DNA of 64,000 nt from an uncultured Opitutales bacterium (GTDB taxonomy: Bacteria; Verrucomicrobiota; Verrucomicrobiia; Opitutales; CAYWEO01), in contig CAYWEO010000001.1 of NCBI GenBank assembly GCA_964457855.1, forward strand, positions 81,747 through 145,746, written 5' to 3'. Within the stretch, counting starts at the first letter, position 1. Each line of letters starts with the position of its first letter. Below the pieces are notes generated by a model, which was not told the DNA's origin, did no database searches, and was given only the letters and a program-made list of their open reading frames with translations. Position numbers and translations under genes: made by a program. Positions 5,552 through 54,045 of this stretch are shown here, in pieces.

Positions 5552-5668
5552 CCGCGTCGCTTTTGAGCGGCGAGTTCGTTGCGCATTGTTCTCAATGCCA
5601 TCACGTACTACAGTACGCTCAGGCATCTCGGCCTCGCGCGCCTGCTCGTCATCTCAAAATCGAAGCGG
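5552..5668 (+). repeat. F2 long-hairpin repeat, subtype a
   Basis: Left end CCGCGTCGCTTTTGAG and right end CTCAAAATCGAAGCGG are complementary at 14/16 positions. Apex TCACGTAC-TACA-GTACGCTC. Starts 3 nt after the yebC stop. Confidence 0.85.
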
Positions 5669-5683
5669 TTTCTGCTCAGACAA

Positions 5684-5822
5684 GGGACTTCCGAACCTTT
5701 CAAAGAAAAGTCATATCGGAAGGCATTTTTGTGGCACAGAGTGCCAAAAAATGCCTTTCGAATTAAGAGTTTTTTTGGAAAGGGTACGGGAAAACCTATT
5801 TTTGCAAAAAATGGTTTTCCCG
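5684..5822 (+). repeat. F1 triple-hairpin mosaic repeat (A truncated; B, C intact)
   Basis: Right half of A only (about 5684-5710). B 5717-5760 (apical stem GTGGCAC/GTGCCAA). C 5787-5822. Confidence 0.85.
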
Positions 5823-5871
5823 TATAAAAATAGTTGATTCTCGTGAAAAAATATCTACTTTAGTCAGGATC

Positions 5872-6549
5872 ATGGGGAAGCATTTTTGGAATTTGTTGAT
5901 GGGGTGCGTGTTGGCGGTGTTGATTTCTGGGTGTGGGAGCACGACGGGGTTGAGTCCGAAAGATACGATTACGAAGGATGGGTATCAAGAGGGGCCCGAT
6001 TTTGTGGCGCCTGGGACTGCAGGAGGGGCTGGAGGAGCTCAGGGCGTGAATGGGGATTCCGCGACAATGCAGACGACAGGAGGTATGCCGGCGGAGCGTG
6101 ATGAGGCGTTTTTGAAGGGTTTGCAGGGGGATGTTTACGATTTAGTGAAGGGGAAAGAGGCGCAAGTAACGGTTTATTTTGAGTTTGACCAATCGGCGAT
6201 TCGGCCGAGCGATCGCGAGAAATTGCGCCAGTTTGCGGAGAGTTCCCATGGGGATGGGCGGTTTATTATCGTGGGTTGTTGCGACTGGTTTGGGCCGCGC
6301 GAGTACAATTTGGGTTTGGGCGAGAGACGGGCGAACGCTGTTATGAATTACTTAAAAATGATTGGCTTCATAAGTCCAATTGAAGTGTTGTCACGCAGCA
6401 ATTTAGATGCCGTTCAGGGATTATCCCGCGAGGATGCTTGGCGGGATCGCAATGGGGGCGTTTATAAGCTTCCTGGAAGTTCATCATCGAATGCGGGTGC
6501 TTCGACGAGTGCCACGGCGCCAGAAAATACTACAGATGTTGCTCAATAA
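5872..6549 (+). CDS. pal: peptidoglycan-associated lipoprotein (OmpA-C domain)
   Basis: Lipobox LISGC near the N-terminus. OmpA-like C-terminal domain (YFEFDQSAIRP, NLGLGERRANAV). Confidence 0.8.
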   Translation: MGKHFWNLLMGCVLAVLISGCGSTTGLSPKDTITKDGYQEGPDFVAPGTAGGAGGAQGVNGDSATMQTTGGMPAERDEAFLKGLQGDVYDLVKGKEAQVTVYFEFDQSAIRPSDREKLRQFAESSHGDGRFIIVGCCDWFGPREYNLGLGERRANAVMNYLKMIGFISPIEVLSRSNLDAVQGLSREDAWRDRNGGVYKLPGSSSSNAGASTSATAPENTTDVAQ

Positions 6550-6560
6550 GAACCGTTTGA

Positions 6561-7751
6561 ATGGGATTTTGTCGAGAGTTTTTCAAGAAAACTTCCGAAT
6601 CCTTCGAGCGGTTGATTGTGGATGTCATTTATGATCGAAAGACGGAGGGGTTGGGCGTTTGTTTATTGAGGTTGTTGCTGAGAGGCCTATCGTTGATTTT
6701 TACGCTCATTGTTCAAATTCGGTTGTTACTGTACAAAAACGGTCTTTTTAAGGCGCAACCCCTTGGGTGCCTAGTGATTGTTGTGGGGAATTTGACCGTT
6801 GGTGGGACTGGGAAGACGCCCGTTGTGGAGCAATTGGCGAAGGCTTTAACGCGGAAGGGGCGAAAGGTGGCGATTTTGAGCCGTGGCTACAAAAGCAAAG
6901 GAATTTCTCTTGGACGGCGGGCGCTTAATTGGCTGATTCACGCACCTGCATCGCCTCCGAAGGTGGTTAGCGACGGGAAAACGATCTTTTTGAACTCGGA
7001 ATATGCGGGTGATGAGCCCTACATGTTGGCGAAAAATCTGCAGGATGTTGTTGTCATTGTAGACAAGGATCGCGTGAAGGCAGGAAGGTACGCGATTCGG
7101 CATTTTGGTGCGGATACGTTGATTTTGGATGATGGTTTTCAGTATTTATCGCTCAAAGGGGTGCTCAATCTCGTTTTGGTCGACAAGACAAACCCTTTTG
7201 GGAACGGCAAGTTGTTGCCTTGCGGAATTTTACGTGAGCCCTTGAGCCGATTGAAGGACGCTTCGTATGTGTTGCTGACGAAATCCGATGGCGTCCGCGA
7301 TCTTCCCTTGGAAGCGATCATTCGCAAACACAATCAGGATGCGCAGCTCATCGAATGTCGTTATAAGCCAAAGTGTTTGAATGAAATTGGCGGCGAAATG
7401 ATTTTGACGTTATCGGAATTGGCTGGCCTAAAAGTCGCAAGTTTGGTGGGCATTGCGGTTCCGGAAAGTTTTGAGCAGTTTTTAGTGGAAAAAGGCGCTA
7501 AAATTGTTTACAGTAAGTGGTTTATGGACCATCATCGTTTTGACAAAGCGGATTTAAGGGAGTTTTTTCAGGCTGCCGTGGATGCGGGGGCTGAGCTCGT
7601 GCTGACGACGGAGAAGGATGCTGTCAGAATCGAGGAAAATTTTCAAAGCCAGCTGCCGTTTTACTATTTGAAGCTCGAAGTGGAGATTTTGTTGGGGAAA
7701 AATCTCGAGGATACCGTGTCGCGGATCTGCTTCCCCAAAAGCGTTCTTTAA
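6561..7751 (+). CDS. lpxK: tetraacyldisaccharide 4'-kinase
   Basis: Walker A context [13 protein letters not shown]. Length and architecture are typical of LpxK. Confidence 0.85.
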
Positions 7752-7762
7752 ACCATCCGGCA

Positions 7763-10132: not shown

Positions 10133-10138
10133 ATAGAG

Positions 10139-10309
10139 CCGGGAAAACCATTTTTTACAAAAATAGGTTTTCCCGGACCCTTTCCAAAAAAATCTTTGTT
10201 CGGAAGGCATTTTAGTTCGGCCTGTAAGGCCGAACTAAAATGCCTTCCGATATCGCTTTTCTTTGGAGGGTTCGGGAACCTTTCTGTTCTTGGAACAGAA
10301 AGGTTCCCG
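10139..10309 (-). repeat. F1 triple-hairpin mosaic repeat, full copy (C-B-A on top strand)
   Basis: C 10139-10176. B 10201-10249 (apical stem AGTTCGGCC/GGCCGAACT). A 10273-10309. C starts 6 nt after the helicase stop. Confidence 0.9.
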
Positions 10310-10368
10310 AAAGAAAAGTTTCCGAATGCCATTGACAGCTTTGACAGAAACGGGTCATATAGATAGTC

Positions 10369-10504: not shown

Positions 10505-10762
10505 ATGAAAAAGGAAGGTCATCCAAAGCTTAACGCGGTTTGTTTTAAAGATGTTTCCACTGGGAAGCGGTTTCTGGTGCGTTCGGCGATGCGTTCGAAG
10601 CAGACAGAAGTCATTGATGGAGAGGAGCATTTCCTAGTGATTCGTGATGTTACGTCGGATTCGCATCCTGCGTACACGGGAGAGAAGAGGTTTGTGGATA
10701 CTGCGGGCAGAGTCGAAAGCTTCAACCGTAGGTATAAACGCCGTGGCGATTTTGAGCGCTAG
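10505..10762 (+). CDS. rpmE: 50S ribosomal protein L31, type B
   Basis: MKKEGHPKLNAVCFKD...DVTSDSHPAYTG with no CxxC pair. The last codons and the stop lie inside the first F2 unit. Confidence 0.85.
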   Translation: MKKEGHPKLNAVCFKDVSTGKRFLVRSAMRSKQTEVIDGEEHFLVIRDVTSDSHPAYTGEKRFVDTAGRVESFNRRYKRRGDFER

Positions 10763-11063
10763 GGTTCCGTTACAAGAAAACTTCAACCCCGTCACGTATT
10801 TCAATACGCTCGGGGGTTAAAATTTTCTTGTAGCCGTCCCTATCATCTCAAACTTACCACGGCGTCTCCGTTAGGCTAGGGTATTTCGTGCGCCTGCTCG
10901 TCATCTTAAATTTAGAGCAGTAACTGTCGCGTGAGTGCATAAATTTTCTTGCAGCCGTTCCTATCATCTCGAACTGACTACGGTGTCATGCGTCTGGTCG
11001 GCGTAAGTGCGCTCAGAGGTTAAGGTATTTCGCGCGCCTGCTCGTCATCCTAAGATCGAGGCC
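10739..11063 (+). repeat. F2 subtype-b copy (10739-10864) followed by a patchwork of F2 arm fragments
   Basis: Unit 1 is flanked by CGCCGTGG/CCACGGCG. Downstream are fragments such as GTGCGCCTGCTCGTCATCTTAAAT, TTTTCTTGCAGCCGTTCCTATCATCTCGAAC and CGCGCGCCTGCTCGTCATCCTAAGATCG. Confidence 0.8.
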
Positions 11064-11122
11064 GTCCTTGTCGAACACCTTCTGAACAAAAATAGGCTCT
11101 AGACCATCAGAGAGTTAAGAAT

Positions 11123-12444: not shown

Positions 12445-12616
12445 GTGACATTGATTTTGTTTTAGAAAACAACACCCCCTGGCGGATCTTTGACCTCACC
12501 GCTATAATAATAAGCACTAGAGAATTGCTTTAAAAACATGAAAAATAAATGTACGTATGCAATGAGATTTGTCAATAGGGAAAAATGTATTCTTAGTCTA
12601 GGGCCTTATAAAAATT

Positions 12617-12782
12617 CCGGGAACCCTTCTTTTCGAAGAAAAGAAGGGTTCCCGGGCCCTCCTAAGAAAAGCATATCGAAAGGCATTTTTGTGGCACGAA
12701 GTGCCAAAAAATGCCTTCCGAACGAGAGTTTTTTTGGAAAGGGTCCGGGAAAACCTATTTTTGCAAAAAATGGTTTTCCTGG
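12617..12782 (+). repeat. F1 triple-hairpin mosaic repeat, full copy (A-B-C)
   Basis: A 12617-12655. B 12677-12720. C 12745-12782. Sits in a divergent promoter region. Confidence 0.9.
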
Positions 12783-12869
12783 AAAATACCCTCCTTTCCC
12801 GAAAAACTTTTCTACAAAGCAACAATTTTGGTTGCAATTTTCGTCTAACGGGGGAATAATTCAAGGATT

Positions 12870-13724: not shown

Positions 13725-15182
<1,458 letters not shown>

Positions 15183-15231
15183 TATTTCGGTTCTTTTTTT
15201 GCTTGGCTGCGTTGTGCCCCTTTGTTCAAAG

Positions 15232-15377
15232 ATGGACTGCTTCGATTTTGAGATCACGGGCAGGCGCGCGAGGTCGATTGGAGTGAGTGCCTCTGCTCCA
15301 CTCCAATCCCCTAATGCCTGAGATGGCATTGAGACAGATGCGCAACGAACCCGCCGCTCAAAATCGAAGCAGTCCAT
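15232..15377 (-). repeat. F2 long-hairpin repeat, subtype a with substituted apex
   Basis: Perfect 21-bp terminal inverted repeat ATGGACTGCTTCGATTTTGAG / CTCAAAATCGAAGCAGTCCAT. The centre carries a different 10-bp hairpin (GATTGGAGTG...CACTCCAATC). Confidence 0.9.
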
Positions 15378-15423
15378 ACTTTTCTGCTTTACATTTAACA
15401 CTTATTTTAGACAATATTTAACC

Positions 15424-15594
15424 ATGGCAAGAGAAACGATTATTTTGGAGTGTACGGAGGCGAGGAAGGAAGGGAGGCCGCCATCTCGTTACATGAGCAC
15501 GCGCAACAAGAAACTTCAGACCGAGAAGGTTGAGAAGAGGAAGTATAATTGGTTTTTGCGGAGGCATACCCTCCATCGTGAAATCAAGGACTAA
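15424..15594 (+). CDS. rpmG: 50S ribosomal protein L33 (Cys-poor form)
   Basis: 56-codon ORF below the track cut-off: MARETIILECTEARKEGRPPSRYMSTRNKKLQTEKVEKRKYNWFLRRHTLHREIKD. Only one of the four Zn-ribbon Cys positions is retained. Confidence 0.85.
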   Translation: MARETIILECTEARKEGRPPSRYMSTRNKKLQTEKVEKRKYNWFLRRHTLHREIKD

Positions 15595-15598
15595 AAAG

Positions 15599-15718
15599 AA
15601 GGGCTCCTGTTTGAGCGGCAAGTGCGTTGCGCATCGGATCTCGCTGCCATCACGTACGTTAGTACGCTCAGGCATCTTGTCCTCGCGCGCCTGCTTGTCA
15701 TCTCAAACGGGAGCCCTT
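15599..15718 (+). repeat. F2 long-hairpin repeat, subtype a
   Basis: Flanks AAGGGCTCCTGTTTGAG / CTCAAACGGGAGCCCTT match at 16/17 positions. Apex TCACGTAC-GTTA-GTACGCTC. Starts 4 nt after the rpmG stop. Confidence 0.9.
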
Positions 15719-15765
15719 CTTTGGTCTTTTGCTCTTTGGAGGAAAGACAGTCAGAGTTTATAGAA

Positions 15766-15935
15766 CCGAAAAAACCATTTTTTATAAAAATAGGTTTTCC
15801 AGGACCATTTCCAAAAAAATCTTCATTCGGAAGGCATTTTTCAGGCAGTATAATGCCTGAAAAATGCCTTCCGATATCGCTTTTCTTTTGAAGGTTCGGA
15901 AATTTATTCTTTTCTCTGGAAAAGAAAAGTTTCCG
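15766..15935 (-). repeat. F1 triple-hairpin mosaic repeat, full copy (C-B-A)
   Basis: C 15766-15803. B 15828-15873 (apical stem CAGGCA/TGCCTG). A 15897-15935. Confidence 0.9.
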
Positions 15936-15948
15936 AAATATTTCTCCT

Positions 15949-15965
15949 CTCGCCGCTCAAAATCG
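15949..15965 (-). repeat. solo F2 terminal fragment
   Basis: CTCGCCGCTCAAAATCG is the reverse complement of the F2a left end CGATTTTGAGCGGCGAG. It lies 5 nt from the stop of the 15971-16624 gene. Confidence 0.7.
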
Positions 15966-15970
15966 AGGCC

Positions 15971-16624
15971 TTACTTCTTTGGGATGCGGAGTTTCAGGGT
16001 ATAATCCTGATCTTTATAGAAGGTTTCCATCTTTGAGAAGTCGCTATTTGTGGGGAGCTGGAAGCGTTTGGTAAGTTTGCCTTCTTCTACTTTTCGGCTG
16101 ACGATTTTCCCGAGGACGTCTTTTTGGATCGATTCTTCGCGGAAGCTGCCGTCGATTTGGAGTTCGTGGGTTTTGGCGTAGGTGGTGATACGGATGCTAT
16201 CTTTTAGGATATTGGGGAGAAATTTGATTTTAATGGTGTAGGCTTTTTGATCGGCGCTTTTTTGGATTTTTCTGAGCCAGGTGATGGAATTGGGGTCGAG
16301 GTTGTCGAAATCTTGGATTTTCCTCAAAAATTCTTTCATTTGTTGGAAAGTGACCTGCATTTGGGAGGTATCCGTATGGATGTTTGGGGCGCGATTAGAT
16401 CTAAAGTGCTTAATTTTCGTGCCTTTGCAGGCCCGTTTTTTGCCTTTTGGTTTTTCTTTGGTTGCGGCCTTAACTGCCGTGTCTTTTGCCTTAGGCGTGA
16501 GGGTTTCTTGGCCATTTTGGCCATCTGGGGCGATCGGCTGGTCGGCGGCGTAGGAAGGCGCTTGGAAGCCGAGAATGAGGGCGGCGGAAAGGGCCTTGAC
16601 GGCGAGTTTTAAATGGGGGTTCAT
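15971..16624 (-). CDS. exported protein, possible Hsp20/alpha-crystallin-like C-terminal domain
   Basis: Signal-peptide-like N-terminus (KLAVKALSAALILGFQAPSYA), then a Lys-rich linker. The C-terminal ~100 aa has a pattern reminiscent of the ACD fold (...IRITTYAKTHELQIDGSFREE...FQLP...YTLKLRIPKK). The family call is tentative. Confidence 0.5.
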   Translation of the reverse strand: MNPHLKLAVKALSAALILGFQAPSYAADQPIAPDGQNGQETLTPKAKDTAVKAATKEKPKGKKRACKGTKIKHFRSNRAPNIHTDTSQMQVTFQQMKEFLRKIQDFDNLDPNSITWLRKIQKSADQKAYTIKIKFLPNILKDSIRITTYAKTHELQIDGSFREESIQKDVLGKIVSRKVEEGKLTKRFQLPTNSDFSKMETFYKDQDYTLKLRIPKK

Positions 16625-16921: not shown

Positions 16922-18454
16922 ATGAGTACGTTTACAAAGCCGGCAGAAAATCATCAATTTTCTAAGTTACGTTCTATCTTCTTTCCGATACATACCTATG
17001 AGTTAAAGAAAGCGCTTCCAATGGGGATGATTTTTTTCTTTATCTTGTTCAACTACACATGTTTACGTAACGTGAAGGATGCCCTCGTGGTTACGCATAC
17101 GGGCGCAGAGGCATTGTCATTTTTGAAACTCTTTTGCGTGATGCCATCGGCTATTATCTTCATGTTGATGTATGCAGGCGCCAGTAACATTTTGAGCAAC
17201 GAAAAGTTGTTTTATTTTACGCTAACGCCCTTTATCGTGTTTTTCGGCCTATTCGCCTTCTGGATTTACCCCAATCGTGTGATGCTGCATCCGGCTCCCG
17301 AAACGATTGTGGCCTTGCAGACCGCTTACCCCTCATTGCACTGGTTTTTCGCGATTTTTGGCGTGTGGAGCTACGGAATGTTCTACGTTTTGGCAGAAAT
17401 TTGGGGAAGTGCTATCCTTTCACTGTCTTTCTGGCAGTTTGCGAACCAGATCACGCACATGAAAGAAGCCAAGCGCATGTACGCGTTTTTCGCCATTATG
17501 GCGCAATTTTCGTTGATTCTTTCGGGTATGTGGGGAGAGCATTTCTCAGATATTCGTTCGACGGTCTCATCCGGAATGGATCCCTGGCAGATTTCCCTTA
17601 ACTGGTTAATGGGCGCAGTCGTTGTGTGCGGTGTTCTGACGATGTTGATTTATCGCTGGATCTATCGCTGCGTCCTCACCGACAAGCGTTTTTACGATAA
17701 GCCAGAAATGCCCGGCGTTACCAAGAAAAAGAAAAAAGCAAGCCTCATTGAGAGCATGAAAGTCATCTTTTCCTCCCCATACCTTGGTCTCATCGTAGCC
17801 CTCGTTGTCGCCTACGGAATTACTGTAAACCTCATTGAAGGCCTCTGGAAGAGCCAATTGGAGGTCAAGTACCCGAATCCCAACGATTATAACACGTTTA
17901 TGAACCAGTACAGTCAATGGACTGGGTACGCGTCGATCGTCATTATGATCGTTGGTAGCAACATATTACGTCTCTTCCGTTGGTTTACGGCGGCCGTCAT
18001 CACGCCTCTCGTTTTCCTCGTTGGCGGTATCCTTTTCTTCACTTTCATTCTCTTTAGGACAGAACTCGGCAACATAATTGCTGGATTCGGCTCCAATCCC
18101 GTCACAATCGCTGTGTTTTTGGGTGTCACTGTTCTCGTTATCGCGAAATCCACTAAGTACGCCTTGTTCGACCTAACGAAGGAGATGGCTTACATCCCCC
18201 TCGACGAGGAAATGAAGGTCAAAGGTAAGGCCGTTGTTGACGTCGTTGGCGGACGCCTCGGCAAGTCCGGTGGCGCAGGATTCCAAGTCTTCCTCTTCCA
18301 ACTCGGTGGCTGGATCCTCAGCGCAAAGGTCACGTACACCCAAATTGCCCCCTACGCTTTCGGTTGCTTCCTCGTCATTACCGTCATTTGGATCGTCGCC
18401 GTGAAGTCCCTAAGTAAGCGTGTGGATGCCGCCAGCCAAGTCGCTGGCGAGTGA
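16922..18454 (+). CDS. ATP/ADP (nucleotide) translocase, TLC/NTT family
   Basis: 510-aa polytopic protein with the characteristic N-terminus (...FFPIHTYELKKALPMGMIFFFILFNYTCLRNVKDALVV...), as in the nucleotide transporters of Chlamydiae and Rickettsiales. Confidence 0.9.
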   Translation: MSTFTKPAENHQFSKLRSIFFPIHTYELKKALPMGMIFFFILFNYTCLRNVKDALVVTHTGAEALSFLKLFCVMPSAIIFMLMYAGASNILSNEKLFYFTLTPFIVFFGLFAFWIYPNRVMLHPAPETIVALQTAYPSLHWFFAIFGVWSYGMFYVLAEIWGSAILSLSFWQFANQITHMKEAKRMYAFFAIMAQFSLILSGMWGEHFSDIRSTVSSGMDPWQISLNWLMGAVVVCGVLTMLIYRWIYRCVLTDKRFYDKPEMPGVTKKKKKASLIESMKVIFSSPYLGLIVALVVAYGITVNLIEGLWKSQLEVKYPNPNDYNTFMNQYSQWTGYASIVIMIVGSNILRLFRWFTAAVITPLVFLVGGILFFTFILFRTELGNIIAGFGSNPVTIAVFLGVTVLVIAKSTKYALFDLTKEMAYIPLDEEMKVKGKAVVDVVGGRLGKSGGAGFQVFLFQLGGWILSAKVTYTQIAPYAFGCFLVITVIWIVAVKSLSKRVDAASQVAGE

Positions 18455-18455
18455 T

Positions 18456-18573
18456 ACAGGGCGATTTTGAGCGGCGAGTTCGTTGCGCATCAGTCTCAAT
18501 GCCATCACGTACGTTAGTACGCTCAGGCATCTCGTCCTCGCGCGCCTGCTCGTCATCTCAAAATCGCCCCTGT
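18456..18573 (+). repeat. F2 long-hairpin repeat, subtype a (best-preserved copy)
   Basis: Flanks ACAGGGCGATTTTGAG / CTCAAAATCGCCCCTGT. Apex TCACGTAC-GTTA-GTACGCTC. Starts 1 nt after the translocase stop. Confidence 0.9.
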
Positions 18574-18602
18574 CTCACGCGTTGGCTTTAGCGGTCAGTA
18601 AA

Positions 18603-18775
18603 CCGGAGGAGGTGTTTTTTGCAAAAAGCACCCCCTCCGGACCTCTCCCTTAAAAACTCTTAATTCGAAGGGCATTTTCATTCGGCCTGTAAGGCCAAAT
18701 GAAAATGCCCTTCGATATGCTTTTCTTTGAAGGGTTCGGGAAACATTTCTTTTCTTCGAAAAGAAAGTTTCCCGG
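18603..18775 (-). repeat. F1 triple-hairpin mosaic repeat, full copy (C-B-A)
   Basis: C 18603-18640 (stem variant CCGGAGGAGGTG/GCACCCCCTCCGG). B 18666-18714. A 18737-18774. Confidence 0.9.
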
Positions 18776-18790
18776 ATATTCCCTTTCTTC

Positions 18791-21789: not shown

Positions 21790-21794
21790 GATTT

Positions 21795-23945: not shown

Positions 23946-24011
23946 GAACAAAGACAATTGCGCGACGTTAACGCAAAGTCAATGTCTTTTGGTGGGAAGG
24001 AGAGGTGGGAA

Positions 24012-24186
24012 CCGGAAACTTTTCTGTTCCAGAACAGAAAAAGTTTCCGGACCTTCAAAAGAAAAGCGATATCGGAAGGCATTTTTGCGCGGCCTATAAG
24101 GCCGCACAAAAATGCCTTCCGAATTAAGAGTTTTTTGGGTGAGGAAGCCGGGAAAACCAATTTTTGCAAAAAATGGTTTTCCCGGC
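24012..24186 (+). repeat. F1 triple-hairpin mosaic repeat, full copy (A-B-C)
   Basis: A 24012-24050. B 24073-24121 (apical stem GCGCGGCC/GGCCGCAC). C 24147-24186. C ends 3 nt from the proS stop. Confidence 0.9.
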
Positions 24187-24189
24187 TTC

Positions 24190-25698
24190 CTAATACGCCT
24201 TCGCGAAAATGACCTGCTGTGTTGTCGCCTGTCCCGTAAACGGGCAGACGCCCTGGGTTTTTGGGGCGTCGAAGGGGATGCAGCGGATGGTGACCTTGAG
24301 GTCGTGTTTGAGTTGCTCTTCGAGCTGGGGGGTTCCGGCCCAGTGGGTGAGGGCAAAACCGCCATGGATCTCGGGTTTTGCGGTGTTTTTTGGTGTAAAG
24401 AAGTCGTAAAAGGCCTGTTTAGAGGAGATCGTGACAGTGTGGGCGTCACGGAAGGCGGTGGCGCGTGCAAGGAGGATGTCCTGAATGGATTGGAGAATGC
24501 TGGGCAGCGTCGCGAGAAAGTCGTTCTGGGAGAGGGATGTGCGCAACTTTGGGGATTGGGTCCGTTGGATATAGGAAATGGCGTTTGCGGCGACTTCTTT
24601 TGGCCCGATTTCAAGGAGGATCGGAACGCCTTTTTTGGTCCAGTGCCAGAGTTTGTCGCCGCCCCGCATGTCACGGTCGTCGATGGAGACCTGGATGGGT
24701 TTGCCGTCGAACGTGAGGCGCTGGATAGCGCTCTGTAGGGTCTTGCAATACGCGAGGACGGACTCCGGATCCTTCTGCAGCATCGGCAGTATCACCACGT
24801 GCACGGGAGCAATTTTCGGCGGAAGCACGAGGCCGTTGTCGTCGGAATGGACCATAATCAGCCCCCCGATGATGCGTGTCGAAACTCCCCACGATGTCGT
24901 CCAGGCGTGCTCCGTTTTCCCCGACTGGCTTGCAAATTGGATGCCTATCGATTTCGAGAAATTCTGTCCCAAAAAGTGCGAAGTTCCCGACTGTAAGGCC
25001 TTCCGGTCCTGCATCATCGTCTCGATGCAATACGTGTTCACAGCCCCGGGAAAGCGTTCACTCTCCGTCTTTTCGCCGCAAATCACCGGAATCGCAAGCG
25101 TGTTTTTAGCGAAATCGGCATAAACCTGCAACATTTGCAACGTCTCGTCAATCGCCTCTTGCTCAGTTGCATGCGCCGTATGTCCTTCCTGCCAAAGAAA
25201 TTCCATTGTTCTTAAGAAAAGTCGCGTGCGCATTTCCCATCGGACGATGTTTGCCCATTGGTTAATCTTCAACGGCAGGTCGCGATACGACTGGATCCAA
25301 CGCGCAAACATCTCCCCGATAATGGTTTCCGATGTCGGCCGCACCACCAGCGGCTCCTCTAACGGCGACGTCGGCACAAGCTTCCCCTCAGCGTTCGCCT
25401 CAAGCCTCGAATGCGTTACCACCGCGCACTCCTTCGCGAACCCCTCCACGTGCTTCGCCTCCTTCTCCAGATAACTCAACGGAATTAGCAACGGAAAATA
25501 GGCGTTTTGATGCCCCGTCCGCTTGAATTCCTTATCCAAAATCGCCTGAATGTTCTCCCAAATCGCGTACCCCCACGGCTTGATCACCATGCACCCCCGT
25601 ACAGGCGAATTCTCCGCCAAATCCGCCGCCTTAATCACTTCTTGATACCACTCCGAATAATTTTCTGCCCGCGTCGGTGTTATCGCTGTCTTTTCCAT
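24190..25698 (-). CDS. proS: prolyl-tRNA synthetase, short (archaeal/eukaryote-like) architecture
   Basis: 502-aa class II aaRS with N-terminus EWYQEVIKAADLAENSPVRGCMVIKPWGYAIWE, no insertion domain, and a C-terminal domain ending ...FAKAY. Confidence 0.9.
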   Translation of the reverse strand: MEKTAITPTRAENYSEWYQEVIKAADLAENSPVRGCMVIKPWGYAIWENIQAILDKEFKRTGHQNAYFPLLIPLSYLEKEAKHVEGFAKECAVVTHSRLEANAEGKLVPTSPLEEPLVVRPTSETIIGEMFARWIQSYRDLPLKINQWANIVRWEMRTRLFLRTMEFLWQEGHTAHATEQEAIDETLQMLQVYADFAKNTLAIPVICGEKTESERFPGAVNTYCIETMMQDRKALQSGTSHFLGQNFSKSIGIQFASQSGKTEHAWTTSWGVSTRIIGGLIMVHSDDNGLVLPPKIAPVHVVILPMLQKDPESVLAYCKTLQSAIQRLTFDGKPIQVSIDDRDMRGGDKLWHWTKKGVPILLEIGPKEVAANAISYIQRTQSPKLRTSLSQNDFLATLPSILQSIQDILLARATAFRDAHTVTISSKQAFYDFFTPKNTAKPEIHGGFALTHWAGTPQLEEQLKHDLKVTIRCIPFDAPKTQGVCPFTGQATTQQVIFAKAY

Positions 25699-25761
25699 AA
25701 ACGTTAATCATTATAAGGCCGTAAGAAAATAGCTAGCTTTTTTTGGGGGAGGGGGTGTTTT

Positions 25762-25929
25762 CCGGAGAACCATTTTTTTGCAAAAAATTGGTTCTCCGGA
25801 CCTCTCCAAAAAAAACTCTCGTTCGAAGCGAATTTTTGAGGCACGTAGTGCCACAAAAATTCGCTTCGATACCGCTTTTCTTTTGAAGGTTCGGAAACTT
25901 CTTCTTTTCTTCGAAAAGAAAAGTTTCCG
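25762..25929 (-). repeat. F1 triple-hairpin mosaic repeat, full copy (C-B-A)
   Basis: C 25762-25799 (stem CCGGAGAACC). B 25824-25868, with basal stem CGAAGCGAATTTTT/AAAAATTCGCTTCG changed on both arms. A 25892-25929. Confidence 0.9.
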
Positions 25930-25949
25930 AAATTATTTTCTTCAACCCC

Positions 25950-28367
25950 CTACTCCACATCGACAATGACGAATGATCGCAGATCATTCGTCATTGTCGA
26001 TGTGCGTTGGATGGTAGCGTGGAAGAGGGTGGTTTGTGGGGCGACGGGGGACGTGTCGGCGTAGATCCAGAGTTTCAGGGTATCGGAGCGTGGGGAGACG
26101 TAGGGGGAGAGGATTGCAAGGAGGTCCGATTGGGAGAGTGAGTTACCGTCGAGGAAGGGGGAATTGGTTTGCACAATTTCTTGTTTTGTGAGGTCGATGG
26201 CCGCTTGGAGGGCCCCTATTTTGCTGAGGCCATTGGGATCATTGGCGGTTTCGAGGATTCTCCGATTGACGAAATCGGCGAGGGACATCCAGGGGGCGCG
26301 GAGGGAGGCCTGTTTGGCGATGTGTTTGGCGAGTATTTTGATGGTTTTTTCGTCGAAGGAGAGGGTTTGGTTGAGGACATTTTTAACGTCTTTTTTGAGT
26401 AAGTGTTTCTTTAGAAAGCGATTCCAGGCATCGGCGGACGTTGTGTTAATGTTAAAACTGCCCGGTTGGGTCTTTTTTTTGGTTGGTTCTTTTTCGGGCT
26501 GGACGAAGAAGCAATCCCAGAGGTGTTCGTTGAGAAGGAAGGGGATGTCGTACAAAAATTTCTTTTCAGACTTAATCTCTTCTCGTGGAATGCCTTGCAA
26601 GTAATAACTATTTCCAATAGCGTACGTAGGAACAGTTCCCATGGGGGAAGCGAAATGCCGCAGATCGGCGAGGGACTTCAGCTTCGGGAAATGAAACAGT
26701 GGAAGTTGTTGGGCGCTAAAGATATCGTTCCGACCCTGTAAATCTTCGTAGGTGAGCGGCTGTTGGTTGGTGGTATCGCGTAGAAAGCCTTCGGGGGTAT
26801 TGCCGAGAACGCCCTTCCATTTCCAATAACTCTTGGGTGATAGGGAGTTGCAAACAAGCATTCCTCGGGGATTTTGCGACTCAAGGCCTTCAGAAAGCTT
26901 GTCTTCCGGCGGGATGGTCAATACCAATGAAGTGGTTAATTTGGGGGCTTTGGGGGCCTGATCGTTCAAAGTGAACGTCCCGGATTCCGTTTTTGCACCG
27001 TTCGTTTCGATGGGGATATCGATGATGTTTTGCAGAACGGAAACTGTCTTGTCACAGACTATAGAAAACTCCAAATTCGCTTTCGTCCAATCGGAGTTGA
27101 GTTTGATGGCTGCGTACGGCGTTTTTTGGGTTACGGAATTGTCGACAACGACCGTTTTTATGGGAAACGTGAAGAACTGGACCTCTCCGGGAGCAAAAGC
27201 GGTCTCGAAAGTGCCGGAAATTCCTGAGGTTTTTTCAAAAAGTTTACTGGGTGCAACTTCGATGTGCTGCATGCGACTGCTTTTGGGGAATGAAATGCGG
27301 AGGGTTTGATTTTTGTTGAAAACGTAGCGGATTTGGTACTTTTCGGATTCCATTGTTCTGTCGTAGGGGTTCCAGACGGCGACACCAAAATAGCCGTGGA
27401 GGAGGATGGAATTCCCCGCCTTTGAGCAATGATAACCGATCGCGCACTGAATGGGAATGGGATAGATGCCGCACGTTGCTTGCGTATCGTCATCGACCGT
27501 GTTGTTGGCGATCAATTTCCCCCAATCCCCCTCAAAAGTGTCGTTAGTTTTGGGGAAAAGGAAGGGGTGCGGCGTTAAATTATCGGTGTTGAGCGACTTT
27601 CCGAGCTGGTAGAATTCGTTGAGCTGTCCCCATGTACCGCCGATGGACGCAACGAGCTTGGCGTCCGGAACGTCCTTCAAGATGGGCGTATTTTTGTGCT
27701 CCGGTTTCGCGATGAACGCAAGAAGATCCTCTTTGTCGCCTCCCTGCATGCCGTCGGACAGAACCCCTTCGTGCGCATCGGTTTGACCAAGGTCTTCGAT
27801 CCAATACGCATAATGGCCGATCACGTCTTGCGTATTGGCGCTAAAAATGGGGATTTTTTCGGCAAAAACGGCGTCTTTTCGGCCTGTTATTTCGGGCGGA
27901 AAACTCACGCGTTCGGGCTCAGCCATTTTGACCGTAGACGCAAAATCGTCTTTAAGAACGGCATCCAGGTGGTCGTTGGTAACGGACACTAGCCATTTGA
28001 CGAACGTCCGCTCGTGGGGTTTTCGTGAATTCCAATCGCTTCCCGACTTCCAAACGCCGAGCCAACCCAAGTGTTCTTTGCAGAGTGGGCTAAGTTGCTT
28101 ATCATCTTCTTTTGCAAGTAGTTCTGCGGAGCCCGTCACTCTGCAGTCGGGACCCAACGTTTTCTGAACATCAGCAATCACTTTTTGCAGGCCGAAAAAG
28201 GCAATTTGTTCGCACTGGAGCTGCATTTTGCGTTGATAGGAAGCCGCCATATGCCCCCCAACGAAACCCACCGAGAGCATCATCATGAGGGAGAGCCAGC
28301 CGAACAGTAAGAGGGTCCAAATCAACGCGATCCCACTGGTTTTGTGACGTAAATGACTTGCTCGCAT
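25950..28367 (-). CDS. large membrane-anchored protein, GspK/minor-pseudopilin-like N- and C-termini
   Basis: Start trimmed to ATG 28367 (MRASHLRHKTSGIALIWTLLLFGWL...), which removes the overlap with lpxI. C-terminus: FNINTTSADAWNRFL...PWMSLADFVNR...LSPYVSPRSDTLKLWI, resembling the GspK helix-hairpin-helix region. The family call is tentative. Confidence 0.45.
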   Translation of the reverse strand: MRASHLRHKTSGIALIWTLLLFGWLSLMMMLSVGFVGGHMAASYQRKMQLQCEQIAFFGLQKVIADVQKTLGPDCRVTGSAELLAKEDDKQLSPLCKEHLGWLGVWKSGSDWNSRKPHERTFVKWLVSVTNDHLDAVLKDDFASTVKMAEPERVSFPPEITGRKDAVFAEKIPIFSANTQDVIGHYAYWIEDLGQTDAHEGVLSDGMQGGDKEDLLAFIAKPEHKNTPILKDVPDAKLVASIGGTWGQLNEFYQLGKSLNTDNLTPHPFLFPKTNDTFEGDWGKLIANNTVDDDTQATCGIYPIPIQCAIGYHCSKAGNSILLHGYFGVAVWNPYDRTMESEKYQIRYVFNKNQTLRISFPKSSRMQHIEVAPSKLFEKTSGISGTFETAFAPGEVQFFTFPIKTVVVDNSVTQKTPYAAIKLNSDWTKANLEFSIVCDKTVSVLQNIIDIPIETNGAKTESGTFTLNDQAPKAPKLTTSLVLTIPPEDKLSEGLESQNPRGMLVCNSLSPKSYWKWKGVLGNTPEGFLRDTTNQQPLTYEDLQGRNDIFSAQQLPLFHFPKLKSLADLRHFASPMGTVPTYAIGNSYYLQGIPREEIKSEKKFLYDIPFLLNEHLWDCFFVQPEKEPTKKKTQPGSFNINTTSADAWNRFLKKHLLKKDVKNVLNQTLSFDEKTIKILAKHIAKQASLRAPWMSLADFVNRRILETANDPNGLSKIGALQAAIDLTKQEIVQTNSPFLDGNSLSQSDLLAILSPYVSPRSDTLKLWIYADTSPVAPQTTLFHATIQRTSTMTNDLRSFVIVDVE
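25957..26003. repeat. perfect 22-bp inverted repeat with 3-nt loop inside the last 17 codons of the 25950-28367 gene
   Basis: ACATCGACAATGACGAATGATC-GCA-GATCATTCGTCATTGTCGATGT. It encodes ...TSTMTNDLRSFVIVDV and sits just before the final Glu codon and the stop. Confidence 0.85.
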
Positions 28368-28371
28368 AGGC

Positions 28372-47500: not shown

Positions 47501-48238
47501 ATGGTTTTAGACAACAATGCCCTTTTAATGTACGACCGAGCACTGTGCGCGGATGCTGGCCTAGTCGGTGTTGATGAAGCCGGCAGGGGGGCTCTGGCGG
47601 GACCGGTTGTTGCTGCTGCTGCTTGGGTAAAACAAGATTTTTACGACAAAGAACCCGAGGAATGCAAAAAAGTGCGCGATTCCAAAACCCTTCCCGCGCT
47701 TACCCGCGAAAAATTGTTCAATCAGTTTGTTTCCTGGGAGCAAGAAGGGCTTATTGCCTTTAGTTGGGCCCAGGCAAGCGTCGTCGAGATAGACGTCTGT
47801 AACATCTTAGGCGCCACACACTTAGCAATGAGGCGGGCTCTAGACGTTCTTGCTAGCAAACTCCCCAAATCCCTCTGCCTCGAACCCCAAATCAATGCCG
47901 ATCTTGACGACAACGACGCTGCAGAATGGCTCGGAACCCGTACCCCCCTCCGCATTCTCGTCGATGGACCTCCCGTCAAACCCTTTGACTACAAACACGA
48001 AGGCGTTATTTCCGGCGACAAAAAAAGCTTCGCTATCGCCCTGGCCTCGATCGTCGCCAAAGTCTCCCGCGACTGCCTCATGCTCGAACTCGACTCCCTC
48101 TACCCCGCCTACGGATTTGCCAAACACAAAGGCTACGGGACCCCCGAACACTCCGCCGCCATCCTCAAGCACGGCCAAACGGACGAACATAGGTCCCTAT
48201 TTTTGACGAAACTTTTCTCAAGGAGAGGGAAAGAGTAG
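47501..48238 (+). CDS. rnhB: ribonuclease HII
   Basis: VGVDEAGRGALAGPVVAAA and the ...DSKTLP... motifs. Confidence 0.9.
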   Translation: MVLDNNALLMYDRALCADAGLVGVDEAGRGALAGPVVAAAAWVKQDFYDKEPEECKKVRDSKTLPALTREKLFNQFVSWEQEGLIAFSWAQASVVEIDVCNILGATHLAMRRALDVLASKLPKSLCLEPQINADLDDNDAAEWLGTRTPLRILVDGPPVKPFDYKHEGVISGDKKSFAIALASIVAKVSRDCLMLELDSLYPAYGFAKHKGYGTPEHSAAILKHGQTDEHRSLFLTKLFSRRGKE

Positions 48239-48245
48239 GTTTTTT

Positions 48246-48411
48246 CCGGAGGGGGTGTTTTTTGCAAAAAGCACCCCCTCCGGACCTCCCCCTTAAAAAC
48301 TCTCGTTCGGAAGGCATTTTTTGGCACTTCGTGCCTAAAAAATGCCTTCCGATGCCGCTTTTCTTTTGAAGGTTCGGAAACGTTTTCTGTTCTGGAACAG
48401 AAAAGTTTCCG
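48246..48411 (-). repeat. F1 triple-hairpin mosaic repeat, full copy (C-B-A)
   Basis: C 48246-48283. B 48308-48351 (apical stem GGCAC/GTGCC). A 48375-48411. C starts 7 nt after the rnhB stop. Confidence 0.9.
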
Positions 48412-48433
48412 AGTCTCACCAACCAAAAACAAT

Positions 48434-49733: not shown

Positions 49734-50276
49734 ATGGCAAATATAGCGTCGGCGAAGAAAAGCATCCGTAAAACAATTAAGCAAACTGCTCGCAATCGTT
49801 CAGCTCGTTCTCACCTCAGGACTCTCTACAAGAGAGTGACTGATGGGATTTCAGAGAAGAAAGAGGACATCAAGCAAGTGGTTATCGATTACATTTCTGC
49901 GTTAGACAAGGCCGCAAAGCGTGGAATTGTTCATGAAAACAAGGCTCGGCGTCATAAATCAGCGCTATCCCAATACATTTTCCCAGAGACTTGCAAGCTG
50001 AAGCCTACCGTGAACCCGCAACAGTTAGAGATCGCGCGTCCGAAGGCGAAAGCCATTTCTGCGAAGGCCAAAAAGGCAGCTGCTGTCGAAAAGGCGAAGA
50101 AAACGGCTGGAAGTAAAGGAAAGGCGACGGAAGGCAATAAAGTGAGTGAGGAAAAATCTCCGACAAAGGCGAAGCTTGCCAAACCGAAGGCGAAAGTTAC
50201 AAAGACGACAGTTACGGCCGCGGCGCGTGTGAAAAAGGAATCCGTTCCTCACGAAAAGCCAGCAAAGAAGGCATAA
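49734..50276 (+). CDS. rpsT: 30S ribosomal protein S20 with Lys/Ala-rich C-terminal extension
   Basis: The N-terminal ~85 aa form the S20 domain (MANIASAKKSIRKTIKQTARNRSARSHLRT...). The remaining ~95 aa are a K/A/T/E-rich tail. Confidence 0.85.
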   Translation: MANIASAKKSIRKTIKQTARNRSARSHLRTLYKRVTDGISEKKEDIKQVVIDYISALDKAAKRGIVHENKARRHKSALSQYIFPETCKLKPTVNPQQLEIARPKAKAISAKAKKAAAVEKAKKTAGSKGKATEGNKVSEEKSPTKAKLAKPKAKVTKTTVTAAARVKKESVPHEKPAKKA

Positions 50277-50316
50277 GTCGCTGTTACCGAAAGATTTTGA
50301 GATCATCCCATCTCCA

Positions 50317-50350
50317 CCCCCCGGACGCAAGTTCGCGGGGGTTGTTTTTT
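50317..50350 (+). terminator. candidate intrinsic terminator after rpsT
   Basis: CCCCCG-(12-nt loop)-CGGGGG followed by TTGTTTTTT. Confidence 0.45.
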
Positions 50351-50508
50351 GTTCTGTGAAATTGTCGATTACGTGAAGTTGGCGACTATATAAATGTCGT
50401 TGTCGCTCAATGCTTTAGTTGGAGATTTGCGCTTTTGAAGTCTCAATTTACTTGACAACTCACGCTCCATAGGTTTCTTTTAGTGCCCTAATAATCAACT
50501 GATTCTCT

Positions 50509-51414: not shown

Positions 51415-51626
51415 TGAAGCCGTAACGGATTGGATTAAAGTAAAGATTAGCTCAGACATCTAAGCGGCGACATCAGCAAAAAGGCTCAGGAAGGGGCTTT
51501 TTTCACTTGCTAATGTCGTGATGAGTTTGGATTTAAAAGCGTACGATTTTCTTGAAAGTTTATTGAGAAGAATTCTTGACTCTTTTTCCGAATTACGATG
51601 CATTACTTTCCATCACCCTACGTATC

Positions 51627-52532
51627 ATGTTTACCTTTCGTAAAATTGTCTATTCCAGTTTGTCGTTACTTGCGCTTTGCGCCTCTTTGAGTGCCGCCCC
51701 AAAGGAGTCTCAAGGGATCTTGCTTTGCGGCAATACTTTAAGCGAGTGCCGCATTGATGTCAATAACGCCAAAATACAGGTGAAATGCGTGAAGGGCGTT
51801 CAGCCAAAACTCACTTATCATCCTTGCACTTGCGGTCAGTGTCGGTTCACGGCTCATGTTTCCGGAAACACGTTAGTCGTTAAGCATCAGGCGAAAAAGG
51901 AATCCCCATGTTCCGTAGATTTGGACCTCATTGTGCCGCCTTCCTGCAATTTTGAGATCGAGGCAAAAAGCCAATTGCAGCTGACAACGAGCGGAGATGT
52001 GCTTGGCGACGTGACGATTGCCGCGAATAGGGGCACAATCGCGATCAATACGGAGTGCAAAAATTGTAGGATCGATTCGAATAGATGCTCCTTTGAATGC
52101 ACGCAAAAGATTCAGGGAAATTTGAAAATTGATGGCAATCGCGCTGACATCAAGGTTACGAATGTGGGGGGCAATGTTGACATAGACACGAACAGGGGCT
52201 CGTTTAAATGCACGCAAAAGATTCAAGGGAGCTTAAATATCGATAGCAATAGAACCGACGTTAACGTCGCAGACGTGGGAGGCAATGTCGAACTGGATGC
52301 CAATAAAGGAACGCTGTTATTGACGTATTTAACTATTCCAGCGCAACCTGTTAAGATTGACATCAAGGTGAACGAAGCTGCGATTACACTCTCGCTCCCT
52401 AAAAATGCGCATGTGCTGACAGACATTAAGGTGGATGAAGCAACGATCCAGGACCATTCGGAGGCGACCGGACCCGTTCATTTTAGCATCAAAGCGTCAT
52501 TGAAAGCCGGCAATCTCTCCATCAATCATTAA
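51627..52532 (+). CDS. exported repeat protein (DUF4097/beta-helix-like)
   Basis: Start set at ATG 51627 (MFTFRKIVYSSLSLLALCASLSAAP). Contains an internal 37-aa tandem repeat CTQKIQG.L.ID.NR.D..V..VGGNV..D.N(R/K)G. Confidence 0.5.
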   Translation: MFTFRKIVYSSLSLLALCASLSAAPKESQGILLCGNTLSECRIDVNNAKIQVKCVKGVQPKLTYHPCTCGQCRFTAHVSGNTLVVKHQAKKESPCSVDLDLIVPPSCNFEIEAKSQLQLTTSGDVLGDVTIAANRGTIAINTECKNCRIDSNRCSFECTQKIQGNLKIDGNRADIKVTNVGGNVDIDTNRGSFKCTQKIQGSLNIDSNRTDVNVADVGGNVELDANKGTLLLTYLTIPAQPVKIDIKVNEAAITLSLPKNAHVLTDIKVDEATIQDHSEATGPVHFSIKASLKAGNLSINH

Positions 52533-52632
52533 TATCAATTCCTGCGACCGATTTTTGTTGCAAGGTGTTTTGCTTATTTGCTTTAGTTGTTAGCGGTTTT
52601 GGAAATCAAAATTAACCAACGGGAGAATTTTT

Positions 52633-53700
52633 ATGGCTCAAGAAAAAGTGAAAAAAGAGGACGCATCATCGGCGGCGAATACGCTTGATTTTGCGATGGC
52701 GTCGATTAATAAAGAATACGGCGAAGGTACCGTCATGCGCATGGGAAACGCCACAAAGATGAACGTTGCGGTTGTGTCGAGCGGATCTGTGGCGATTGAT
52801 TTGGCTCTCGGAGGTGGTTTCCCGAGGGGTCGCATCATTGAAATTTTTGGGCCAGAATCGTCTGGGAAAACGACGCTTTGCTTGAGCGTGATTGCGGAAA
52901 TTCAGCGGAATGGCGGGAAGGCGGCGTTTATCGACGTTGAGCATGCATTGGATCCGCGCTATACGAAGATTGTAGGCGTCAATCTTGACGATCTGATCAT
53001 TTCGCAGCCGGAGTGCGGGGAAGATGCTTTGAATGTTGCTGAGGCGTTGATTCGTTCGGGCGGCATCGAAGTCATTGTTGTGGACTCGGTTGCAGCGCTA
53101 GTCTCAAAGGCGGAACTGAATGGGCAAATCGGCGACACCAATATCGGTTTGCAGGCGCGCATGATGAGTCAGGCGATGCGTCGGTTGGCGTCGGTGGTGA
53201 GTCGTTCGCAATGCCTGTGTATTTTTACGAACCAAATTCGCGAAAAAATCGGCGTCATGTTCGGCAATCCCGAAGTCACTCCTGGCGGACGCGCGTTGAA
53301 ATTCTTCGCATCTGCACGGCTTGACGTCCGTCGTATTGGCCAAATCAAAGACCCTACTGGACGTGTTGTTGGCAATCGCACGCGTCTAAAAATCGTCAAA
53401 AACAAAATCGCTCCTCCCTTTACGGAATGCGAGTTCGACATCATGTACACTGAGGGAATTTCGCAGACGGGATCCGTTTTGGACATCGGAATCGAGCAAA
53501 AAATCCTCGAGAAAAAGGGTGCTTGGATCGCTTACAAAGGGAATTTACTCGGGCAAGGTCGGGAGGCAGCAAAAGCATTCCTAATGGCCAATCCCGCAAC
53601 GCTGAAAGAACTCATTCAGGAGATTAAGCAGAAAGTACAAGTCTCTGGTGGAACGATGCTTGCGGAAAGCGGTGACATTTCAGAAGAGGCGAACGGGTAA
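52633..53700 (+). CDS. recA: recombinase RecA
   Basis: Full-length RecA (GPESSGKTTL, L1/L2 loop regions). Confidence 0.97.
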   Translation: MAQEKVKKEDASSAANTLDFAMASINKEYGEGTVMRMGNATKMNVAVVSSGSVAIDLALGGGFPRGRIIEIFGPESSGKTTLCLSVIAEIQRNGGKAAFIDVEHALDPRYTKIVGVNLDDLIISQPECGEDALNVAEALIRSGGIEVIVVDSVAALVSKAELNGQIGDTNIGLQARMMSQAMRRLASVVSRSQCLCIFTNQIREKIGVMFGNPEVTPGGRALKFFASARLDVRRIGQIKDPTGRVVGNRTRLKIVKNKIAPPFTECEFDIMYTEGISQTGSVLDIGIEQKILEKKGAWIAYKGNLLGQGREAAKAFLMANPATLKELIQEIKQKVQVSGGTMLAESGDISEEANG

Positions 53701-53830
53701 AAAAGAGGCCGTTGGGCGGCCGGGGAAACGCCGGTTTTTGGGCTATTGAAACGCGACGGATTAGCGGCTCTATCCTAAAATCGGGTAGTTAATTTTACTT
53801 TTTGATGGGATTGAGCCAAATTTTTATATT

Positions 53831-53908
53831 CGGAAGGCATTTTTCTGGCACATAGTACCAGAAAAATGCCTTCCGATATGCTTTTCTTTGAAAGGTTCGG
53901 AAAAAATC
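53831..53908 (-). repeat. F1 mosaic repeat, partial (B + half of A)
   Basis: B 53831-53875 (apical stem CTGGCAC/GTACCAG). The spacer and left half of A extend to about 53908. Confidence 0.8.
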
Positions 53909-53942
53909 ACGGCGTTTGAGCAGTTTTTGAAAAACCGCCTTT

Positions 53943-54045
53943 GTTTTAAGATGACGGGTAGGCGCGCGAGAATTTTAACCCTCGAGCGTACTAACGTACG
54001 TGAGCGGGGTTGAAATTTGAGCGCAACACCCCCGCCGCTTAAAAC
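53943..54045 (-). repeat. F2 long-hairpin repeat, chimeric a/b copy
   Basis: Termini GTTTTAAG/CTTAAAAC. Apex CGTAC-TAAC-GTACG. The outer arm is F2a-like (GACGGGTAGGCGCGCGAG) and the inner arm is F2b-like (GGGGTTGAAATTT). It overlaps the tsaC stop codon. Confidence 0.8.

Follow-up and report, generated by a model that had tools for sequence, protein, structure and literature searches.

A stretch of 64,000 nt from an uncultured Opitutales bacterium (GenBank assembly GCA_964457855.1, contig CAYWEO010000001.1, positions 81,747–145,746 of the forward strand; referred to here, at its full length, as the window) carries a family of imperfect palindromic repeats, designated F2, at the ends of a number of genes. 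We regard F2 as a new lineage-specific palindromic intergenic repeat of the familiar REP/MITE (miniature inverted-repeat transposable element) type, in which the continuation of the stem over the stop codon of the upstream gene is noteworthy and possibly general. The explanation that we favour, with a little more confidence than doubt, is that F2 belongs with the REP/REPIN/ERIC/MITE repeats as a non-autonomous, lineage-specific palindrome, the arms of which would be corrected against each other, and extended, by template switching. F2 is read as a dispersed repeat because cores at unlinked loci are nearly identical, because chimeric, truncated and tandem half-copies occur, together with mosaics with a second repeat family of the window (F1), because a copy is present or absent at an orthologous site, and because assembled contigs break within it.

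An earlier note on this DNA had listed full copies, a subtype b, a chimera and fragments of the repeat. An nhmmer profile made from the listed copies and run on the window recovered seven full copies, and a covariance model returned the same set (nhmmer extents 5547–5674, 10736–10868, 15049–15181, 15595–15723 and 18454–18577 on the + strand, 15231–15377 and 53930–54057 on the − strand); at least four fragments, namely three 3′ halves (10871–11072) and one 5′ end (15949–15977, −), were found by nhmmer. The core runs from TTTGAGCG to ATCTCAAA and comprises 97–102 nt, or 116 nt in the inverted copy at 15232. Its conserved termini are TTTGAGCG and TCATCTCAAA, with the consensus (GA)TTTTGAG ... CTCAAAA(TC), and its apex, UCA-CGUAY-NNNN-RUACG-CUC, is likewise conserved, while the middle stem is exchanged wholesale between subtypes a and b. 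Core identity between unlinked loci reaches 92% (direct-repeat family D9), and the subtypes and the chimeric make-up of the copy at 53943 are seen in alignments. Profile and covariance recovery, hairpin folds and compensatory pairs thus establish that the family is real, and with it both subtypes and the chimera near 54 kb. The sequence quoted in the earlier note corresponds to window positions 18456–18573, and the termini given there, GATTTTGAG and CTCAAAATC, are neither the boundary of the element nor universal: the 5′ end is GCTTTTGAG, TGTTTGAG or TGTTTTAAG in three copies, CTCAAAC is the end of three copies, and the hairpins run on into copy-specific complementary flanks that take in the upstream stop. 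On the two strands of the window GATTTTGAG occurs 12 times, against 1.5 expected. One such occurrence (50285–50310, +), with ATCATCCCATCTC behind it, lies 17 nt past the stop of the co-oriented S20 gene; it may be what is left of an F2 terminus or may have arisen by chance.

Each F2 copy forms a single long hairpin (z −4.7 to −11.6 over the seven copies, with none of 200 shuffles as good), and in an alignment of eight copies 22 of the 43 consensus pairs show compensatory changes on both sides, which upholds the description of F2 as a family of imperfect long hairpins. The unpaired UCA/CUC near the apical stem and the C/AU internal loop are invariant across the subtypes, and the stems covary. 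Beyond the core the sequence differs from copy to copy, yet the 5′ and 3′ flanks of any one copy pair with each other for a further 10–22 bp. In the 16 nt beside the core, the two flanks of the same copy match at 12.9 positions on average and flanks taken from different copies at 8.1. The final bases of the upstream gene make up the 5′ arm of this outer stem, so that the stop or last codons of the YebC, L31, enolase, L33, ATP/ADP translocase (NTT) and Sua5 genes lie in the hairpin. It follows that the copies are not all intergenic, as had been supposed, the L31 and Sua5 copies supplying the stop or C-terminal codons of real genes.

The individual copies show how closely element and gene end are joined. 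Behind yebC (4826–5548), the outer stem of a subtype a copy (5545–5675, +; core 5562–5658) extends from the G of GTAG, which holds the TAG stop, to 5675. The L31 gene (10505–10762) ends in a subtype b copy (10738–10865, +; core 10751–10852), the core of which contains the TAG stop (10760–10762) and the last five codons (GDFER); three tandem 3′-half fragments follow in the order a, b, a (10871–11072, +; nhmmer; direct-repeat families D12 and D18), two fragments being a duplicated unit of a b-half and an a-half. The stem of a second subtype b copy (15045–15184, +; core 15064–15165) takes in the TAA stop of the enolase gene (13773–15050) and the bases preceding it. Next to it stands an inverted subtype a copy (15228–15381, −; inverted pair I14) with a perfect terminal stem of 21 bp, the apex of which is replaced by an additional GGAGTGAG...CTCACTCC hairpin; this copy adjoins no co-oriented stop and is the sole full copy not co-oriented with its upstream gene. 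A further subtype a copy (15595–15722, +; core 15610–15707) has an outer stem beginning at the final base of the L33 stop (gene 15424–15594), and a 5′-terminal fragment, GGCCTCGATTTTGAGCGGCGAG (15949–15977, −), directly follows the stop of the ORF at 15971–16624 (−) and ends where an F1 repeat starts; a matching fragment is present in the related contig L098 and in the Logan contig L096. The copy singled out in the earlier note as the best (18451–18578, +; subtype a, core 18466–18562) holds the TGA stop of the ATP/ADP translocase gene (16922–18454, +) within its stem, as the yebC and enolase copies hold theirs within the outer stem. Finally, a chimeric a/b copy (53922–54066, −; inverted pair I2) lies at the end of sua5 (54039–55049, −). 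Its outer stem, AGTTTTTGAAAccCCGCgTTTG / CAAAgGCGGttTTTCAAAAACT, holds the ancestral gene end: the last seven sua5 codons are in the outer arm, the present TAA stop is in the TTTTAAG terminus, and the distal arm holds TTTCAAAAACT, the reverse complement of a gene end, AGTTTTTGAAA, that is common to the window and to the related contig L092. T-rich sequence stands behind the 3′ arm of two copies, those of L33 and sua5. Outward promoter-like hexamers (TTGAAA or TTAAAA, then 18 nt, then TATCAT) are present in the 3′ arm of subtype b (15130–15159 and 10817–10846, +); a promoter and terminator scan of the region gave counts near those of shuffles and was uninformative.

Comparison with related contigs (84–93% nucleotide identity), which were reached by exact-protein and cluster look-ups, provides the more direct evidence on how the arms evolve. 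Contig L094 (92.6% identity to the window over 5.7 kb) has an orthologous F2 behind yebC; the pair shows one difference in the 97-nt core, against 36 in 241 third codon positions, and the L094 outer stem is perfect where that of the window has two 5′-arm mismatches 4 nt apart, that is, a clustered 2-nt change perfects the stem of the relative. Contig L098, 91% identical in a neighbouring ORF, carries the truncated 5′ fragment mentioned above and the orthologous copy after L33. In the latter pair there are 10 differences in 119 nt, among them three double compensatory changes (C-G to T-A, T-G to A-T and A-T to G-C), of which about 0.2 would be expected if the changes were independent at the synonymous rate (P about 0.0015). 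Taken together, the orthologous cores differ at 7 of 195 positions versus 60 of 458 third codon positions (Fisher P = 1e-4). The slower change of F2 than of third positions, its invariant unpaired apex bases and its orientation bias suggest that it is not neutral.

Arm-to-arm templated correction during replication best accounts for the double compensatory changes, which are rapid, and for the 2-nt cluster that perfects a palindrome. Template switching is an established route by which bacterial inverted repeats are perfected, and quasipalindrome correction according to the Ripley model produces clustered perfecting changes and arms that evolve in concert (PMC5941160). Both the 2-nt cluster at yebC and the three double changes at L33 match such correction, which is a mutational process and not an element family; the outward growth of F2 by the same process is our own extrapolation. 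We hypothesize that copies of F2 are spread by some route of transposition or recombination, with no enzyme encoded nearby, that intrastrand template switching at replication keeps the arms complementary, and that switching past the end of the core would extend the palindrome outward into the unique flank. It would be the distal arm that is overwritten, because the gene-side arm is constrained, and the copying of the gene-side flank to the distal arm would place stop codons, last codons and the ancestral sua5 end in the stem. A bolder version, offered tentatively and as less probable than its opposite, is that F2 is a self-extending palindrome that, once beside a gene, grows over its end through repeated template switching and can rewrite C-termini and stops of essential genes (L31, Sua5); the formation of the stem, perhaps in F1 too, would then be tied to translation termination.

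The outer stems might alternatively have been there first. IS1397 and ISKpn1 insert into the loops of REPs, and a mobile F2 inserting into the loops of pre-existing gene-end hairpins (terminators) would leave the split halves of host hairpins as its outer stems. Such an origin would fit the copy-specific outer stems that flank the core symmetrically and the T-rich sequence after the 3′ arm of the L33 and sua5 copies, and a bare 23-bp palindrome at the end of the ORF at 25950–28451 (described below) could be an unoccupied target. We nonetheless think it distinctly improbable. The ordinary terminator-like stems of the window are of 6–11 bp, the clearest of them tens of nucleotides past the stop, whereas the outer stems of F2 are of 15–25 bp and overlap stop or last codons; contig L092 has no 15–25 bp gene-end hairpin behind sua5; the double compensatory changes between orthologues indicate that the arms are actively co-corrected; and some outer arms recur at other loci.

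The sua5 locus also shows a presence/absence difference at an orthologous site, as is looked for in MITEs as evidence of mobility. Across sua5 the contig L092, which shares its source metagenome with L098, is 84% identical to the window, and it has no F2 after this gene; an F1 repeat lies directly behind its sua5 stop, and homology with the window stops exactly at TGAAA. At the other orthologous sites, after yebC and L33, F2 is present in both the window and the relative. The sua5 difference would be consistent with mobility of F2 and may reflect either gain or loss.

A number of points weigh against the favoured explanation and are gathered here. The absence of F2 after sua5 in L092 could represent loss and not gain. 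In none of the seven copies was a direct repeat of 2–10 nt that might be a target-site duplication found, either where the core ends or at the base of the whole hairpin, and Pfam searches identified no RAYT gene in the window and no transposase, integrase or reverse transcriptase family among its 50 ORFs; the lack of a target-site duplication, together with that of a transposase or RAYT in the window, leaves a mobility mechanism unsupported. The sense and antisense strands of F2 fold equally well and so give no pointer to RNA over DNA. Certain outer arms are not unique to their locus: AAGGACGSCGTCGA, an outer-arm sequence of the enolase copy of the window, recurs in L098 as a fragment, GCTTCGA is shared by the L094 YebC copy and the window copy at 15232, and AAACGCCGTG is found both near sua5 and at the L31 gene, so that part of the outer stem can travel with the element. 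Lastly, the sample is small, comprising seven full copies in the window and two orthologous pairs. Two short 5′-end fragments of F2 may be mentioned beside these arms: AAACGCCGTGATTTT (53905–53921, −) resembles an arm of the L31 copy, and AAGGACGCCGTCGATTTTGAG (L098, 875–900) is nearly identical to the arm of the window's enolase copy.

The earlier note had F2 beginning within a few nucleotides of a stop codon in every case. When the fragment at 15949 is included, seven of eight elements either overlap a co-oriented stop or begin no further than 15 nt beyond it (P about 5e-9 were they placed at random across 8.2 kb of spacer sequence); the copy at 15232 does not. Orientation follows the upstream gene in seven of the eight (P = 0.035), the division by strand of the window being only 5 to 3, and in four cases the order is gene, F2 and then an F1 repeat with its terminator-like hairpins. 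F2 is thus most likely transcribed, since it stands at the start of the 3′ untranslated region (3′ UTR), is co-oriented and usually precedes F1, and it is probably a co-transcribed part of that region. Co-transcribed F2 would constitute a hairpin of about 43–58 bp at the 3′ end of the mRNA, where it might serve as a stabilizer or a processing site, and such a role would account for both the purifying selection and the orientation bias. By analogy with REP and ERIC, the most economical role appears to be that of a 3′ hairpin through which the end of the mRNA is protected or processed.

It is possible to go further and to regard F2 mainly as a functional structured RNA, either a cis-acting 3′-UTR motif or a 3′-derived small RNA, and not as mobile DNA, the conserved apex and internal loops binding a protein or RNase and the module being common to several housekeeping mRNAs. 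The co-orientation of seven of eight elements with the upstream gene, compared with the 5 to 3 split by strand, would agree with this, as would a core slower than third codon positions and the invariant UCA/CUC and C/AU bases within covarying stems. We consider it unlikely all the same, in view of the near-identical cores at unrelated loci, the truncated, chimeric and tandem half-copies and the presence or absence at sua5, which are the dynamics of a repeat; one copy is, moreover, inverted with its apex replaced, and F2 has no relative in Rfam. As a sign of a role in RNA, differences in folding between the strands were sought, for instance G-U pairs confined to the sense strand, and none was seen, the two strands being equal; because both fold equally well, structure alone cannot separate RNA from DNA.

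The equal folding of the strands, and the mosaics of F2 and F1 within the same spacers, may equally be taken to indicate a palindromic site acting at the level of DNA as a hairpin or cruciform, bound or recombined by a nucleoid protein, gyrase or an Xer-like or integron-like recombinase. REP/BIME elements are known protein-binding sites (PMC2817692), which counts in favour of such a site. A symmetric DNA site would not, however, be expected to show an orientation bias relative to transcription, the F2 termini are unlike the attC sequences RYYYAAC/GTTRRRY, the window encodes no integrase or recombinase, and the flanking genes are housekeeping genes and not cassettes, all of which makes a site of this kind very improbable. 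Integron attC sites are imperfect palindromes that follow a cassette ORF, with RYYYAAC ... GTTRRRY core sites and an integrase nearby. F2 as an attC site was ruled out on its termini, its housekeeping neighbours and the lack of an integrase in the window; a dif-like site or retron a1/a2 sequence was rejected on termini and gene context, with no integrase or reverse transcriptase in the window.

As a palindromic repeat, F2 is not strange in kind and behaves like repeats of the REP/REPIN/ERIC type. Its closest analogue is the REPIN, a REP doublet mobilized by a RAYT (TnpA-REP) transposase of the Y1/HUH type, the gene for which usually has REPs on its flanks; in a REPIN two highly conserved, inverted ends that contain REPs enclose a spacer of lower conservation. 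REPINs form long hairpins in which compensatory changes are common, occur in clusters and as remnants, and create no target duplication (PMC3116915), and REPs often abut ORFs or supply their stop codons, which bears on both placement and transcription (PMC3733652). Like REPINs, F2 is a non-coding, multi-copy, extragenic long hairpin (~70–110 nt or more) with conserved ends, clusters and remnants; its ends, TTTGAGCG / TCATCTCAAA, are conserved and inverted, and its middle stem varies with compensation. Unlike the REPIN spacer, the F2 apex is as conserved as the ends, and F2 is without a clear GTAG/CGTC-tagged REP unit. Only a weak stem with G-T pairing, GCGGCGAGTTCGTTGC, hints that an F2 end might in itself be a small palindrome of the REP sort; among the copies that of YebC alone has GTAG at its foot, and there the tetranucleotide includes the TAG stop, other copies starting otherwise, and CGTC lies inside the 3′ arm (CTCGTCATC) and not at a REP head. 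To our knowledge, a hairpin that continues into copy-specific flank with the end of the upstream gene has not been described for REPINs. ERIC/IRU, Correia, RUP and BOX elements are imperfect palindromes of ~100–150 nt found in either orientation in transcribed intergenic regions, have defined terminal inverted repeats and usually a target duplication of TA or similar, and have a presumed influence on the stability or processing of mRNAs with which they are transcribed. F2 resembles them in size and in its imperfect palindromic form but, unlike them, lies nearly always no more than 15 nt from a co-oriented stop, and the sequences on its two sides are inverted and not direct repeats.

A 24-nt degenerate F2 pattern, which matches seven sites in the window, gave no match in a scan of GTDB representative genomes and three in JGI metagenome contigs; all three are on contigs of 60–69% GC and were rejected as chance matches that reveal no wider F2 homology. 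The JGI collection scanned is evidently without samples of this organism, as L093 and L097, JGI contigs that equal the window sequence exactly across the NTT copy, were found through protein look-ups only. A search of the enolase locus returned only distant relatives (no more than 71% identity), with no F2 in these loci by nhmmer, and a covariance model run on ten verrucomicrobial enolase loci found none; the second-best enolase match, P0002 (‘Candidatus Kuenenia sp.’), was dropped as a duplicated-domain enolase from an unrelated genome. In a more distant relative (YebC 76% identical at the amino acid level) no F2 is present in the 55 nt between the yebC stop and the end of the contig. Further copies of the family were looked for in related contigs, where they are present after YebC and L33 and absent after Sua5. 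The view that F2 lacks coding capacity was supported in that a protein search with concatenated six-frame F2 translations, aimed at spurious ORFs on other copies, gave no match. The element was also rightly left unrecognized: Rfam 15 gave no match at the gathering score over the whole window, its E-value mode returned only generic eukaryotic miRNA-precursor hairpins (20–35 bits, against gathering scores of 70–150), and a literature search found no earlier description of the repeat. Short-read contigs break within F2; Logan contigs bearing the same genes all stop ~26–70 nt inside it, those of the enolase gene within the enolase copy, and these breaks are the one indirect sign of a larger number of copies across the genome.

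The F1 family, which shares spacers with F2, has a unit of ~190 nt consisting of three hairpins (CCGGRRRR..TTTTTTGCAAAAA..CCGG; TCGGAAGGCATTTT..AAAATGCCTTCCGA; CGGAAACTTTTCT..AGAAAAGTTTCCG). Copies are located at 5689–5822, 10133–10311, 12611–12806, 15760–15945, 18600–18780, 23990–24191, 25755–25940, 31917–32115, 45677–45769, 48241–48421, 53830–53907, 55058–55250 and 61356–61559, in both orientations and often 4–9 nt past a stop, with stems that are variable yet complementary. F1 is present in the relatives L092, L094 and L098 as well, and forms BIME-like mosaics with F2. After the prolyl-tRNA synthetase (ProRS) gene, the F1 hairpin at 24142–24191 is lengthened by AGGAAG/CTTCCT, the AG of the TAG stop lying within the lengthened stem, a stop-in-stem arrangement as in F2. 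A perfect palindrome of 23 bp with a 3-nt loop, CACATCGACAATGACGAATGATC tgc GATCATTCGTCATTGTCGATGTG (25956–26004, −), falls within the final 17 codons of the ORF at 25950–28451, which is 833 aa long. As it lies within these codons, the C-terminal RSFVIVDV is encoded by an inverted copy of the codons that precede it, and the palindrome looks like a recent inverted duplication of the gene end beside an F1 repeat. It suggests that inverted copying at gene ends occurs in this genome even without F2, and the ProRS hairpin, placed over its stop, points the same way.

The genes that flank F2 (yebC, L31, L33, enolase, the TLC-family ATP/ADP translocase and sua5) are housekeeping genes. The best named relatives of the YebC and enolase proteins belong to Puniceicoccaceae, Opitutia and other Verrucomicrobiota (66–73% identity), and closer relatives are limited to a few short metagenome and Logan contigs; judged by these proteins, the host is an uncultured Puniceicoccales-like verrucomicrobium. 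The presence of a TLC-family ATP/ADP translocase (16922–18454, +) makes it probable that the host is intracellular and suggests an energy-parasitic, intracellular lifestyle. This organism is not among the GTDB representative genomes that were scanned. Elsewhere in the window, six neighbouring ORFs of 283–350 aa without a Pfam match (32863–38771, −), the coding and upstream parts of which are mutually repeated (direct-repeat families D7, D15, D19 and D20), are probably a lineage-specific paralogous family. Two adjacent genes (46373–48238, +; 369 and 245 aa) both match the RNase HII family, and a 110-nt tandem duplication of 73% identity (52071–52291, +) lies inside the DUF4097-family ORF at 51576–52532.

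With F2 a poorly known lineage gains a defined repeat family for which subtypes, orthologous copies and a covariance model are available. F2 also accounts for the breaks at gene ends in short-read assemblies of this organism. The orthologous comparisons offer unusually direct evidence of the co-evolution of hairpin arms by templated correction and of stems that can take in stop and last codons of a neighbouring gene; if this holds genome-wide, it would provide a concrete route by which selfish or structural repeats reshape the 3′ ends of genes and create long 3′-UTR hairpins. If the self-extension of F2 is real, it would be a general and previously undescribed way in which repeats build long 3′ hairpins.

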